A stretch of DNA of 64,000 bases from the IMG/VR virus record IMGVR_UViG_2687453508_000006; one strand, 5' to 3'. The stretch is from a virus. Lineage: Duplodnaviria > Heunggongvirae > Uroviricota > Caudoviricetes. Positions 45,001-57,000 of the stretch are shown here, piece after piece (position 1 is the stretch's first letter; the number at the start of each line of letters is the position of its first letter). Position numbers: made by a program.

Positions 45001-48000
45001 CAGAGGAAAGAAAATGTCATCGAAAAACCGGCCCCGCAGAACAACAACCCGCAACATCCGATTTCCAAACCAGATGATTGAACAAATTAACATCGCTCTT
45101 GACCAGAAAGGTTCAGAAAATTTTTCTGCGTGGGTCATTGAATCTTGCCGCCGGGAGCTGGCAGCAGACATAAAATATGCCCGTCAGTTGACTATAAAAA
45201 AGAATGATACACAGTATGCTCTGCGATGGCTGTTCATATAACTATTTCTTTATATTGCTGAATTTATAAAAACTCACAGACATTAGCTGTATTAATTCCG
45301 AATTGAAATAATCAGCCATATAGAATAAAAATAAAGCATAACAATAATAATCTTCTACCCAATCAGTACATTACTGCTGTGACTCCAACACGGCAGTTTT
45401 TTTATTGAACAGATTCCAGTTTCTTCCACCATCGCACCGGACGGGCGACCATGAGGGGAGAACGCCGCGCTCCGTTTACGCGGTAAACCCCGGTGTGTAT
45501 CGTTTTTTGATTATCCCCGCACACTCTCGCAGAGGAGTCTCCCTGTCGGGCTGCGGTCTCTGTTAATGCAGGAATACGGCGACGATACGGCGCATCAGCA
45601 AAACTTAGTTCAGGCACTGAGTGCGGATATAGTCCTGTGCCCCTTCCAGCTGCTTCTGCATTGTCATCAACCGTTCTCTGAGGATGAAATAATCCCGTTC
45701 AGCGGTGTCTGCCAGTCGGGGGCCGGTTGCATTATCCACGCCGGAGGTGCCGGTGGCTTCACGCACGGTACCGGAGCAGGTGGCGTTGATCCGCAGGCGC
45801 TTACGACCAGCGGCAACATCAGCACGCAGAGTTTCATTTTCAGCTCTCGCATCGGCTAACTCCCTCGAGTATTTTGCATCGAGCGCCAGCAACATCACGC
45901 TGGCGCACCTGCATGTCAGTAATGGTGGCATTCGCCTGTTCCAGCTCTCTGGCTTTTTTATCGCGCTGCGCTTTGTAGGTGAGCGCGTTGTCACGGTAAT
46001 GGTTTGTTGCCAGCCACAGCGCACCATAGCCAACCGCCAGGACAATAATCACCACACACAGAACACGGTTCATCTCTCTTTCACCCCACCAGTCCCGATA
46101 ACGTCAGGACTCGCCAGGCGGTGGAAAAGAAAATGGCAACCAGCATGACTAAAAATGAAATGCCGACAAGTACACAGAGGCTCTTCACCAGCGTTATGAG
46201 TTTATCTGATATCATTAGCCACCCCATCAATCCGCCTTTGTTATTTTCCCTTTGCCTGTATCAGCCAGGACAAAATCAATCAGCATATTCGCTTCATTTA
46301 CCAGCGTACGGATTTTTGATACATGCGCGGCTTTAACCTGTTTCCACTCATTCAGCCCGGTAGCAAACACACTGGCAATGTTTTTATCCGTTTCATGTCA
46401 GCACAAAGCCTGGTTGAGTTCTTCCATCACGCTCATTTTACGGGGATTAACGACAAAACCCTTCGTCCAGTACTCGTAAAGAACATCGTCGCACTCTTCC
46501 TGATACCGGATGACCTTATCGCGGATTTCGGGTTTTACTTTGTTGGGATTAATGGTTTGTAGCCAGCCGGCAAGTTTTCGAAGTGGCATGGACACCATAT
46601 TGCGTTGTTTCCCATCCTCAGCAACCATAACGATTTCCGTTATAGTTGACGCAAAACGCTGTCTTAACTTAGCCAACTGTGATTGCCAGGCCAGCCCCAT
46701 CCCCGCAACGACAGGTTTCATGGGAACGTATGGTTTTTGGTTAACTACATAAAGAGAGTTGCCGTGAAACGGCACGGCCATCATATTCATCGGTTATTTC
46801 CTTTTAGTGATGAACCTTGTCTCACAGGAATCCAGCCCACAGAAAGGCACCGACAGCCAAACCGGTATCCTCAAGGGTCATCCTGAAAGGTTCTGTGTTG
46901 TGAGATGCGCGTGAGATGCGCAGAAATGACAAAGGCATCATTACGGTGCCTGAGTTAAACAACTGCTTTGACTTTATTCACTTACATTTTGCCAATTTGC
47001 AGGATTTCGTGTTATCCGTCCATGTAAGCAAACCTCATTTTTCAGCAAAATATTCTGCTTATCTGTCGATTCCCCAGCACGCCAGCGCGCTCTCCTGGTC
47101 ACGACGGGATACCTGACCGTAACAGTTATTTGAGCGAATACGGCAGTCCCTGCCACCGTCCTTAATCCACCAGCGAATCGCTTCGCAGGCACCTTTTCGA
47201 TCTCCTGCATTAATCCGTCTGTAAAACGTCGACGGGAAACACTTACCGGGGCCAATGTTGTACGGACAGAATGACGCGATCCCCGCTTTCTGGGGTTCGG
47301 TCAGCGGCACTCTGATGTTTTTCTCCACCCATGCCAGCGCCTTATCACGCTCAATGGCGTTAACCCGGTCGCATTTTTCCTTCGACAGCTTCATGCCAGG
47401 AATAACAGGCTTACCATCCCCCCGGGTGGCTCCACGGCAGATGGTCCAGATACCCGCACCATCACGGTATGCTGTGGTGTGGTTACCTTCCTTTTCATCC
47501 AGAAACTGGTCGAGGATTTCAGGCGCAGACGCCCCTGCACCAATCAGCGCCAGAACGGCAGCCGACAGGCCGTATCTGATTTTTGCGTTCATGGATATTT
47601 ATCAGGGTTTATCGATTTCAAATCCCTGGATATGTTAAGTCTTCAGGCCAGCGGTCTCTCAGCTCCTGCTCCGGGTCCGCTTCCGGATTGCCCGCCACAA
47701 AATTCACCGCATCCAGAAAACGGGCATACACCCGGCGGCGGACCACCGTGGCCCCCACCAGGCTCTGCAGGTCCTCCGCCATCCCGGTGACCAGACCGAA
47801 CAGATTGGACACCGTCAGCGACGGGCGGGCACTGCTGCCCTTCCCGTTCATCTCAAAGCCACTGCCGTCAATCGGGTATACCTGATATTGCCGCCCCTGC
47901 CAGGTGACCGCCTCCCCTTTTTCATTCAGCTCATTACAGAAAAAATACCGCTCACCGCCCTGCACCGTCAGGTCGATTTCCCAGAGCACCACCCGCGGTG

Positions 48001-54000: not shown

Positions 54001-57000
54001 AATTTTCCCGCATGACACCCATTCTTCCGTCATTTCTCCCGGCAGCATTACGGGTTAACACCGGGTTCAGAACACTTATCATCTGTGTCAGACGACCTGC
54101 AGATATTGCCATTCCCCCTCCTCATAACACCGTCGGACAACGCAAATCGTAAATCAGCACGGACACAGAAAACGGCAGTTCCCCCTGCACGAGGTCTTCC
54201 CGCTCAGCAAGATCCGGATTCCGGTACAGCATCCCGGTCAGTCGCATGGCAGCCCCCTTCATCCGGGTTAATGCCTCGCCCGGGATCAGCTCACCGTCCT
54301 CACGAATCACCTTATCCCGGCTGCCCTGAATGTAGGCCAGCAGCACGGCGGTAGCCTGACGAACCTTGTCCATCAGCATGTCATCATCCGCGTCATGGTC
54401 GACACGCAGATGTGCCTTGATCTCTTCCAGTGTCAGTAATGCCGTCATTTTCCGCCTCCTGCATCCCGTCCACGTTTGGCAGCCAGGGTCCAGCCTGATG
54501 AATGAGCTTCTCCGGGTTTATCACCGGTCATACTGTTGCAGTGCCACAGCGAGCCCCCCCACGTCACCGTATCACCGGGGTGGTAGGTTTCACCGGCTCT
54601 GAACACACCGCGGTAGAGCATCACCGGCAGGGAAAATGTTTTTTCCGTACGCTGGCCACTGCTCTGCCGGACCACCACAGTGAACGACCGTTCGCCGGTC
54701 ATGCTGACGTCAATATCGGCCACCCCGTCAACCAGGCATTCCCATCCCCGCATCCCGTGCGTTTTTTCATACGCCCGCCAGAGTCCGCCCTGGTGTGTGG
54801 CATACGTGCCCCGGGGAAAGGATTTTTGATCGTCAATGGCGGGGATTATTTCCAGTGCCGTGGCATCACGCCCGTCCTGCGGAGCCGGCAGGGCTCTCAC
54901 CGCATCCAGAACAGCCTTCTGCAGAACATCGGGATCATAGTCACGACCATCACGCGGAACAGGAATATGGCTTACCGCCTCTTTCACCATCTGTTCAAGC
55001 ATCGGACGCACATCATCGGGGGTAATACTTTTGCCGTCCGCCGGTACCGGAATATTCGCAACCGCATCATTCACCGCCTGCTTCAGTACTTCCGGATCAT
55101 AATCACGACCGTCACGCGGAGCAGGGATATGGCTTACAGCCTCTTTCACCATCTGCTCAAGCATCGGACGCACATCATCGGGGGTGATACTTTTGCCGTC
55201 CGCCGGTACCGGAATATTCGCAACCGCATCATTCACCGCCTGCTTCAGTACTTCCGGATCATAATCACGACCGTCACGCGGAGCAGGGATATGGCTTACA
55301 GCCTCTTTCACCATCTGCTCAAGCATCGGACGCACATCATCGGGGGTGATACTTTTGCCGTCCGCCGGTACCGGAATATTCGCAACCGCATCATTCACCG
55401 CCTGCTGCAGTACATCCGGATCATAATCACGACCATCACGCGGTACCGGAATGGTCCCCACAGCGTCATCCACCATCGCCTGCAGAACCGGATGTACCTC
55501 ATCCACCGTCACATGCTTCTGTAATACCGCCGACAGGGAAGCCAGTTTCTCTTCAAACGCTTGTGCCTGCGCGGCCATCTTCCCCTCAAATGTGCGCTGT
55601 AAATCCGCCAGCACCGTGGAGAATTCTTCGCCCAGTGCACGAATAATGGACAGTTCCCGTTCCGTCATTTTCTCAGTATCCCCCTGAACATCGCTTTCAC
55701 TGCATCATGCTCTGTTTCACTGATTGCCTTATTACCGTCAGATGCGCCGTCAGGCAGTTGTGCTGAAACTGTTTTCCCGGCAGACGCGAACGGATCCTCA
55801 CGGGCATCACGACGGGACAGCGCCTCCAGACTGTAGTTCTGCTGCTGAAGATACAGTGCATCACCGCCGGCCAGGGGCGGCAGGTTCTCCCGTTTACGGG
55901 CCTCATTGGGCGTGAGAAGCGTATTTTTCACCGCATCCCCCAGCGTTTTCATGCGCCGCTCACTGTCCATTCTCAGCAGCGTGGTGACATCAAATTCTGT
56001 ACTCTCGTTTTCCCCCGTTTCCAGCGCCTCATCCAGTAACAGTTCAATGGACTCAATCAGCGTCTGCAGACACTGGGAATAATACTGCTGCTCCAGCGCC
56101 TCCACGTTGTCACTGGAAGGCGGGTGGCCAACGCCAATCTTGTAGGCCGGGACACGGAACACCGAACAGACAATTTCAGCCGTCATTTTCAGTTGTTCCA
56201 CCGTCTGCGCATCCACCGGTGAAAACGTCGTGGGGCTGTATTTTGCCCCGTTGCTCAGTATGGCCGTCTTCCCGGCATTTTCGCCCGTATATCCGCTGTC
56301 CCAGTTCCCCTTCAGTTTTTTCGCGTTTTCTTCCGTAATACTGCCGGGGACCTCAATCACGCCTGATGGTCGCCCGCCATTTCTGAAAAAATACGTCGAA
56401 TTTGCCTGAATATGATGCCCCTGCATGGCGGCCAGTCCTGCGGCATACACCGGCGGCAGCCCCACAAGCGGATGAAAAAAACAGTTAAAACGGTCGTGGA
56501 TCACCTCCCGGGCAGGCACCGTCACCGACTCTGTGATCCCACAGTTCCGGTCCGGCGTGATGCGGTAGAACACCTCGCCGTCATCCGCCACCAGAGGTTC
56601 AACCCGGTTCCAGTCCAGAATACGCAGTTCTTTGATCTGCCCCCGGGGGGTGCGGATTTTCAGCACCACCGTATTGCCGTGACGCAATTTGGAATTCAGC
56701 CACAGTTCAAAAAACTGGATGCGATTCTGCTGCGCATTAGGACGACGACAGAGACGGGCAGTATCTCCCTGCCGCTTTTCCCGGCGTATTCCCTGTACAT
56801 CAGTCTGCATCAGGCGAAGCCGCATTTTGGCAATATCCTGGGATATCAGCGAAATGCATGAAAACACCGCGTGAAAGGACAAAACGGTTTCCGGATCGGC
56901 TTTCACCCCCTGCTGCCAGGCACCGGCAAAAGGCTCAGCCACCGCCTGAAACAGGGACCGCCAGCCCACTTCTCTTACGTCACGTCCTGATTTCTGGTTT

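Follow-up and report, generated by a model that had tools for sequence, protein, structure and literature searches.

Complementary gene breakage in a repeated Escherichia coli O157:H7 prophage late region: probable consensus errors around a probable false duplication

The 64,000-nucleotide stretch of prophage DNA analyzed here (the window) carries the late genes of a lambdoid prophage in two tandem copies, and different genes are broken in each copy. If real, this would be an unusual complementary degeneration of duplicated virion-gene modules and would be relevant to the question of particle production by defective O157 prophages. If it is instead an artefact, some ten pseudogene calls and a duplication of 17 kb in this assembly would be unfit for analyses of prophage function, pseudogene rate or structural variation. 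The question is therefore whether the pattern is biological. Our comparisons indicate that positions 44574-54038 are probably a low-quality consensus with residual indel errors, lying around a probable false duplication, and that the complementary decay almost certainly reflects consensus errors rather than biology. The tandem duplication itself is, we infer, most likely an assembly product of a locus that is truly single-copy as in strain Wll001, although this call is less certain than the one on the errors.

Two copies of a late module

The window corresponds to the Sp11/Sp12 lambdoid prophage region of E. coli O157:H7, with Wll001 and Sakai as the nearest strains; the Sp12-locus prophage of Sakai (NC_002695.2, 2204089-2255027) and that of Wll001 (NZ_CP064167.1, approximately 365-405 kb) served as references. 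Sakai is 100% identical to window positions 1-35434 (35.4 kb) and shows no substitutions against 15967-35434 and 38619-47655. The single copy of Wll001 shows no substitutions over the 19.5 kb of 28143-47655, with 100% identity over 28143-44573, and none against positions 54039-64000. Outside 44574-54038, no copy-specific difference between the window and these relatives was found. Given this near-identity, the collinearity and the presence of hallmark Pfam domains of portal (PF04860), capsid-protease (PF05065 and PF04586), Rz (PF03245) and P22-type antirepressor (PF10547), the locus is an Sp12/Sp10-type late module of a lambdoid O157:H7 prophage.

Self-BLAST and pairwise alignment delimited a direct head-to-tail repeat. 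Copy 1 (30326-47647, 17,322 bp, genes on the minus strand here and in copy 2) takes in the late region of the Sp12-locus prophage, beginning inside tail gene L and finishing where a ydfR-like gene ends, while copy 2 (47648-64000) ends at the window edge. The copies are 98.6-99.1% identical, differing by approximately 96 substitutions and 40 gap openings. As the initial annotation had stated, the central block is identical in both: positions 36895-44573 (connector, split portal, capsid-protease, terL, terS) match 54039-61718 and Wll001 at 100%. Each copy, however, has its portal gene in two pieces (37300-38523 and 38520-39884 in copy 1), which corrects that annotation; the defect is inherited, since Sakai Sp10 has the same split and the Wll001 portal is flagged as frameshifted. 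Beyond 54039, the two copies match at 100% save for the indels that copy 1 itself carries past 44574.

Gene status was called by tblastn, for which the queries were proteins of Wll001, a relative with a single copy. In copy 1, the tail genes M, H, T, G, V and U are intact at 100%, as are the gp10-like, head-closure (adaptor), connector, capsid-protease, terL, terS, HNH and endolysin genes; H (31064-34306) is the long allele of 1080 aa, identical to Sakai ECs_2240, and endolysin R (47059-47592) matches over 177/177 aa at 100% identity. The Rz gene of copy 1 (i-spanin, 45605-46073) falls into two frames split at 45886 by an extra C that is missing from copy 2, Sakai and Wll001. The adjacent antirepressor gene (P22_AR_N family by Pfam, 46230-46790) is interrupted, its ORF ending at 130 of 189 aa, and alignment revealed the loss of C at 46388, a gained A at 46405, and the loss of CGCCA and of A at 46736-8.

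Both of these genes are intact in copy 2 (Rz at 62750-63217, with a Pfam Phage_lysis match; antirepressor at 63371-63940, by tblastn and Pfam), where 62750-63940 is 100% identical to Sakai Sp9, Sp10 and Sp12. At the other end of copy 2, gene L (47648-48052) is truncated at the junction, with 135 of 232 codons remaining, followed by 9 residues that the junction encodes. Tape-measure gene H (48386-51467) is in at least five frame pieces spanning 48389-51467 on a short-H allele backbone, with private indels at 48637, 49203, 49823, 49984-50026, 50997 and 51192. Much of the deletion of about 155 bp previously reported in this gene is not decay and corresponds to the natural, 162-bp-shorter H allele of Sp9 and Sp10. 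The tail chaperone gene G (51827-52195; 79% identity by tblastn, ORF of 79 aa) lacks C at 51892 and AC at 51965. The G/V intergenic region and the 3' end of V (52196-52320) are garbled, with approximately 10 private indels in 125 bp, and V is without its final 30 or so residues. The tail completion gene U/gp17 (52981-53321) is frameshifted by a C missing at 53091, and the head-closure gene (53761-54112) by an extra C at 54038. Further indel positions are 44574 and 45503 in copy 1 and 51484 in copy 2.

The complementary breakage described initially, of Rz and antirepressor in copy 1 and of H, G, V, U and head-closure in copy 2, is thus present in the sequence. The proposed comparison with close relatives gave a different picture for the references. 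Sakai and Wll001 have the same gene order (J-I-K-L-M-H-T-G-V-U-gp10-closure-connector-portal, continuing capsid/protease-terL-terS-HNH-Rz-ant-R-ydfR-holin), but each has a single late-region copy in which Rz, antirepressor, H, G, V, U and head-closure are all intact; the window adds the second copy after ydfR and the private indels.

Private indels around the junction

The damage is not scattered, as first described, but forms one contiguous 9.5-kb stretch (44574-54038) across the repeat junction that holds every copy-specific indel. All events of copy 1 fall within its last 3.1 kb and all those of copy 2 within its first 6.4 kb; under uniform placement, the expectation for such clustering is about (0.16)^8 and (0.39)^20, respectively. 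Copy 1 carries 8 private indel events and no private substitutions, and copy 2 approximately 20 indel events and at most 2 substitution columns, giving a combined spectrum of about 28 indels against no more than 2 substitutions. Among spontaneous mutations of E. coli, substitutions exceed indels roughly 10:1. Copy 2, Sakai and Wll001 are concordant against copy 1 at 7 of its 8 events, the eighth (46954) lying past the end of copy 2 and being compared with Sakai and Wll001 only. Roughly half of the private indels alter the length of a short base run; since natural indels favor homopolymers too, sequence context alone has no discriminating power.

Real pseudogenization would be expected to show a natural spectrum and a distribution unrelated to the junction, whereas the events here are indel-only and contiguous with it, in repeated DNA, with unique DNA clean. 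The split J and split portal genes, which are also found in Sakai and Wll001, indicate that genuine decay behaves unlike the private frameshifts. Among 5,426 complete E. coli genomes, no exact match was found for the lysis stretch of copy 1 (44400-47100, best 99.5%) or for a segment of copy 2 H (49204-49822, best 99.0%), and none for the junction; a 42-mer across the latter was also not found in IMG/VR or GTDB representatives. The junction and both segments searched thus lack an exact counterpart in these independent assemblies. Localized sequencing error, which had been offered as an alternative, is strongly supported by the indel dominance, the clustering at the junction and the lack of exact matches for the tested segments, while a biological complementary decay finds no support in frameshifts that are private to this assembly.

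Some observations count against the artefact reading. An exact look-up of ten fragment proteins gave a single match, in nr only, the 77-aa Rz fragment being RefSeq protein WP_149017362.1, so that this Rz frameshift is carried by one or more annotated genomes, which may include the present one. In addition, error density shows no sharp rise toward the junction, with no indels in the terminal 690 bp of copy 1 or in the initial 990 bp of copy 2.

We propose that the frameshifts in Rz and antirepressor of copy 1 and in H, G, V, U and head-closure of copy 2 are residual indel errors. Such errors would survive because the DNA is repeated in multiple copies, at least three paralogs having an identical lysis region: reads would align to the cleaner instance, and the faulty one would never be corrected. 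The lysis stretch is an exact repeat across Sp9, Sp10 and Sp12, and four paralogs share the tail region at 97-99% identity.

Paralog alleles and the origin of the repeat

The left part of copy 2 is not a duplicate of the left part of copy 1, for its H is the short allele and its intergenic regions are of paralog type. Save for at most 2 sites, its substitution alleles are all found in the paralogs Sp6, Sp9, Sp10 or Sp12. Explaining it as a mosaic of these paralogs takes 25 switches over 6 kb and leaves 2 sites unexplained, compared with 4-13 switches for real O157 alleles under the same count. At 201 of 317 variable sites, it carries the allele common to at least three of the four paralogs. 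The garbled zone at 52196-52320 coincides exactly with the greatest divergence between paralog types, and isolated private deletions fall on paralog-polymorphic columns in 3 of 9 cases, against a background of 5-6%. No single donor accounts for the tail region of copy 2: every candidate (Sakai Sp6, Sp9, Sp10 and Sp12; the Wll001 Sp9 locus and Wll001 locus B; F8798, the EDL933 NleA phage, phages YYZ-2008 and 2851, strain 144 and SMN013SH2) differs at 79-164 of approximately 354 variable sites. Sp4, Sp11 and Sp14 carry a different, lambda-type module and were rejected as donors. The left part of copy 2 may be viewed as a composite consensus, assembled from reads that belong to several paralogous prophages. 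The recombination between copies suggested initially does not account for it, because an exchange between two copies cannot create alleles that neither has, and these alleles come from prophages elsewhere in the genome.

A three-way comparison of window, Wll001 and copy 1 located the junction at an 8-base microhomology, CCAGCGGT (47648-47655), that occurs both in the sequence on the ydfR side and inside gene L. A genuine duplication by illegitimate recombination would be expected to leave such an arrangement, with the copies in head-to-tail order and a short microhomology where they meet. The chance of such a match in blind contig concatenation is about 1e-4, which counts against the artefact reading, and microhomologies of this kind typically accompany real illegitimate recombination or template switching, which keeps a real duplication under consideration. 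The microhomology and the lack of an error peak at the junction led us to downgrade blind end-to-end joining of two overlapping contigs; a false duplication might rather have arisen from a mis-bridge, or from a single chimeric or rare molecule. Two apparent carriers of the junction, DEC5B and Z1323HEC0399, proved to be single prophages with internal deletions that hit merging had joined, and a literature search for tandem duplication of the Sp12-locus prophage retrieved nothing relevant.

The alternative that survives best, though we consider it unlikely, is a real 17.3-kb tandem duplication, formed in the isolate or in a subpopulation when ydfR and L underwent microhomology-mediated illegitimate recombination, with the indels still being consensus errors. 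The junction would then have been bridged by few long reads that could not be polished within the repeat. The 8-bp microhomology and the local, head-to-tail arrangement suit this reading, the contiguous 9.5-kb dirty stretch is compatible with a long-read bridge, and O157:H7 cultures do show duplications, but the documented cases use long prophage or IS homologies rather than 8 bp (PMC8743559). A recent duplicate from the same local sequence would be expected to equal copy 1, yet the left part of copy 2 has the short H and other paralog alleles. A clonal event would moreover give plentiful junction reads and a clean consensus, and the junction is missing from all 5,426 genomes.

It is very improbable that copy 2 is what remains of another lambdoid prophage of this family, a fifth one located upstream, whose tail genes are truly decaying and whose truncated L was fused by a deletion to ydfR in the Sp12-locus prophage. 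Such an origin would explain why the alleles in the left part of copy 2, short H included, differ from copy 1, and the lineage does have tandem prophages (Sp11/Sp12) and truncated L genes. It would nevertheless require approximately 20 private indels with almost no private substitutions and 25 switches among known paralogs, and it leaves unexplained both the indel-only damage on the copy 1 side and the 100% identity of copy 2 to copy 1 from 54039 onward, apart from the indels of copy 1 after 44574. Wll001, the closest genome, has nothing at that place.

Even less credence is given to a real, recent, microhomology-mediated 17.3-kb duplication of the late operon with real frameshifts in the junction-proximal halves and gene conversion from paralogous prophages; if true, the jointly complete pair would be a phage-module analogue of duplication-degeneration-complementation. 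The least probable reading of all is true complementary decay or an inter-copy recombination mosaic, which fits the non-overlapping set of broken genes and a pair that together encodes one intact version of each, but is opposed by a spectrum opposite to that of spontaneous mutation in E. coli, by events that all abut the junction, by the agreement of the other copy with the reference genomes at 7 of 8 copy 1 events, by tested segments that have no exact match elsewhere, and by the inability of inter-copy recombination to generate alleles foreign to both copies.

Comparison with known systems

The preferred reading, residual consensus errors around a probable false duplication, has a known counterpart, as residual indel errors persist in repeats after polishing of long-read and hybrid bacterial assemblies (Wick and Holt, 2022, Polypolish, PMC8812927). 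Like those errors, the differences found here are mostly indels, cause frameshifts, affect one repeat instance while the other is clean, and spare unique sequence; the likeness is drawn from the consensus. Unlike simple homopolymer errors of that type, they include garbled zones and paralog-mixed alleles.

Prophage-mediated rearrangements and duplications of O157:H7, validated by optical mapping or PFGE, span 140-220 kb, are inverted and are bounded by long stretches of prophage or IS homology (Fitzgerald et al., 2021, PMC8743559). The window shares with them the lineage and the involvement of lambdoid prophage sequence, but its repeat is of 17.3 kb, direct, within one prophage and joined at 8 bp.

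O157 Sakai harbors a pool of defective prophages, many of whose members have real defects (Asadulghani et al., 2009, PMC2669165), and Sp6, Sp9, Sp10 and Sp12 have the same head and tail module as the window. The real defects encountered here, among them the split J and portal genes and the truncated L gene of Sp9, recur from strain to strain, whereas the copy-specific frameshifts are specific to this assembly. Private differences that consist of indels only and adjoin a unique junction, together with paralog-mixed alleles, may serve as a diagnostic for false duplications from sequence alone.

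Gene status in the two repeat copies

The late region of the prophage is present as two direct head-to-tail repeat units, copy 1 (30326-47647) and copy 2 (47648 to the window end), with all late genes on the minus strand. To assign gene status, tblastn was run with the proteins of E. coli O157:H7 Wll001, which carries a single copy, and Pfam checks were added. The initial annotation had described different genes as broken in each copy around an identical centre, and both parts of this description were borne out. In copy 1, Rz is split at 45886 and the antirepressor gene is interrupted at 46388, 46405 and 46736-8, while M, H, T, G, V, U, gp10-like, head-closure, connector, capsid-protease, terL, terS, HNH and endolysin were recovered at 100% identity. 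Copy 2 has intact Rz and antirepressor genes. Its H gene lies in at least five frame pieces, U and head-closure carry splits at 53091 and 54038, respectively, G is broken, V lacks its C-terminus, and the repeat junction truncates L. The central block 36895-44573 is identical to 54039-61718.

Kinship and inherited defects

Positions 1-22000 match E. coli O157:H7 Sakai (from 2189034) at 100% identity, as they do Xuzhou21 and Wll001; by the match with Sakai, they hold the early region of Sp11 and the beginning of Sp12, the prophage in tandem with it. Alignment revealed no difference from Sakai over 15967-35434, and the alignment of 28143-47655 with Wll001 405000-385482 had 9 gap openings and no substitutions. 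Owing to this near-complete sequence identity to both, the source of the window is closely related to Wll001 and Sakai. The Sp11/Sp12 boundary (15000-22800), which is identical to Sakai, contains three nleG pseudogenes, IS629/IS1203, partial IS256-family and ISEc8 elements, as well as a 170-bp repeat (21719-21884 vs 22587-22761; 87% identical).

Both repeat copies differ from Sakai Sp12 by about 95 substitutions over 35435-38618, a patch that resembles Sp10 and matches Wll001 at 100% identity. The Wll001 prophage at the Sp12 locus has an Sp10-type early region, and the Sp10 locus of this strain retains the same head proteins. The patch and the Wll001 layout suggest that, in this sublineage, Sp10 and Sp12 have exchanged sequence by gene conversion or rearrangement.

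The J gene lies in three pieces in the window prophage, Sakai and Wll001: at ~24900-28600 it is fragmented exactly as Sakai ECs_2233-2235, and the Wll001 gene is annotated as frameshifted. Unlike the private indels of the two copies, the split J is genuine prophage decay common to these strains. The portal gene (37300-39884 and 54445-57029) consists of two ORFs in both copies, one of 454 aa with the Phage_portal domain and one of 407 aa, owing to the absence of a single C near 38535 compared with the intact 2580-bp gene of Sakai Sp12. Since the same two-ORF split occurs in Sakai Sp10 (ECs_1974/1975) and the portal genes of Wll001 and F8798 are annotated as frameshifted, this split looks inherited rather than private to the assembly. 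The 407-aa ORF, which follows the portal domain and has no significant Pfam domain, contains three tandem 162-bp units (37754-38377 and 54899-55522; 82-94% identical) that account for many of the positions differing from Sakai Sp12.

Private changes and the origin of copy 2-left

All copy-specific indels fall within one contiguous stretch of 9.5 kb, 44574-54038, across the junction at 47647/47648, and no copy-specific differences were found beyond it. Up to 44573 copy 1 is the same as Wll001, as is copy 2 over 54039-64000 except for one poly-C length. This tract, at 44592, reads C7 in Sakai and in both copies of the window and C6 in Wll001; the difference belongs to Wll001, as a variant or an error there.

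Copy 1 carries eight private events and no private substitutions: loss of T in a T8 run at 44574, gain of T at 45503, gain of C at 45886, loss of C at 46388, gain of A at 46405, losses of CGCCA and of A at 46736-8, and loss of GT at 46954. Comparison with closely related genomes, as proposed in the initial annotation, showed the single-copy Sakai and Wll001 opposing copy 1 at all eight; copy 2 agreed with them at the first seven, and the event at 46954, past the end of copy 2, was judged from Sakai and Wll001 only. For copy 2, 47648-53660 was aligned with 11 related alleles. Outside indel-adjacent garble, the dinucleotide 49130-1 provided the only private substitution columns, alongside about 14 private deletion events and about 6 private insertion events. 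Spontaneous mutations in E. coli comprise roughly ten substitutions per small indel. Because the ratio observed here (~28 indels vs at most 2 substitutions) is the opposite and the changes are confined to the junction flanks, this is no natural spectrum.

The junction-proximal tail-gene part of copy 2 (copy 2-left) is, judging from its alleles, no degraded derivative of copy 1. Its H is the short allele of Sakai Sp9 and Sp10, and its T/H and G/V intergenic regions are of non-Sp12 type. The short allele naturally lacks 162 bp, an in-frame deletion flanked by 12-bp direct repeats (TTTTTCCTGCAG). The length polymorphism lies at 32665-32833 in copy 1 vs 49983-49990 in copy 2; H is long (3243 bp) in Sp12 and Sp6 and short (3081 bp) in Sp9 and Sp10, from which tails of two different lengths would be expected in O157 prophages, H being the tape-measure gene. 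No single donor matched copy 2-left among the candidates compared (Sakai Sp6, Sp9, Sp10 and Sp12, two Wll001 loci, F8798, EDL933, two phages and two other strains).

All substitution alleles of copy 2-left are present among the four Sakai-type paralogs, and at 201 of 317 variable sites the allele is common to at least three of them. As a mosaic of the four, copy 2-left needs 25 switches with 2 sites unexplained, compared with 4-13 switches for real O157 alleles. The garble sits exactly at paralog indel differences, i.e. the H deletion boundary and 52196-52320, and of the 9 private deletions that stand isolated, 3 coincide with paralog-polymorphic columns (background 5-6%; p about 0.02). We infer that copy 2-left is a consensus that combines reads from several paralogous prophages. 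Since the lysis stretch across the junction is identical in Sp9, Sp10 and Sp12, read mixing there would leave indels only and no substitution trace.

Status of the duplication

Searches for three segments covered 5,426 complete E. coli genomes. Neither the copy 1 lysis stretch (44400-47100; best 99.5%, the difference being the indels) nor the copy 2 H segment (49204-49822; best 99.0%) had an exact match in any of them. Together with the indel-only private changes at the junction flanks, this supports the sequencing error that the initial annotation had offered as an alternative, and the indels are very probably errors.

The 17.3-kb duplication itself is probably an assembly product, or backed by nothing more than a rare or chimeric molecule. 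Its real presence in the isolate is unlikely: although the junction contains an 8-bp microhomology (CCAGCGGT; chance about 1e-4) typical of illegitimate recombination or template switching, and the error density does not peak there, the duplication is not found in any relative, copy 2-left does not derive from copy 1, and the junction flanks are dirty. The third segment, the junction, occurred in 0 of the 5,426 genomes, with matches ending at 47655, and in the single copies of Sakai and Wll001 ydfR runs on into the holin gene. Biological complementary decay or recombination between the copies, the other reading first proposed, is hardly credible as a real process given the unnatural spectrum and the alleles in copy 2-left that copy 1 lacks; the pattern is present in the sequence, yet it is no real biological feature.

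In the proposed mechanism, the frameshifts are consensus errors left over in a single instance of a multi-copy repeat, where reads go to the cleaner instance and the faulty one stays uncorrected; the same failure mode has been described for polishing in repeats (PMC8812927). A junction lacking real read support would yield the observed block pattern. Because reads running from the tail genes into K-I-J could be placed on copy 1 only, and those that connect the lysis genes with holin and Q on the end of copy 2 only, the junction-proximal parts of both copies would be short of reads.

A truncated L that keeps ~363 bp is also found in the compared prophage loci of Sakai Sp9 (L010; 37148-37585), strain 144 (L015; 2484-2846), where it adjoins an IS3-family element, and DEC5B (L004; 3001-3363), with a breakpoint unlike the 405-bp truncation at the window junction. 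The duplications known from O157 are inverted and of much greater size, with long homologies at their boundaries and physical validation (PMC8743559), whereas the repeat in the window is direct and has an 8-bp microhomology.
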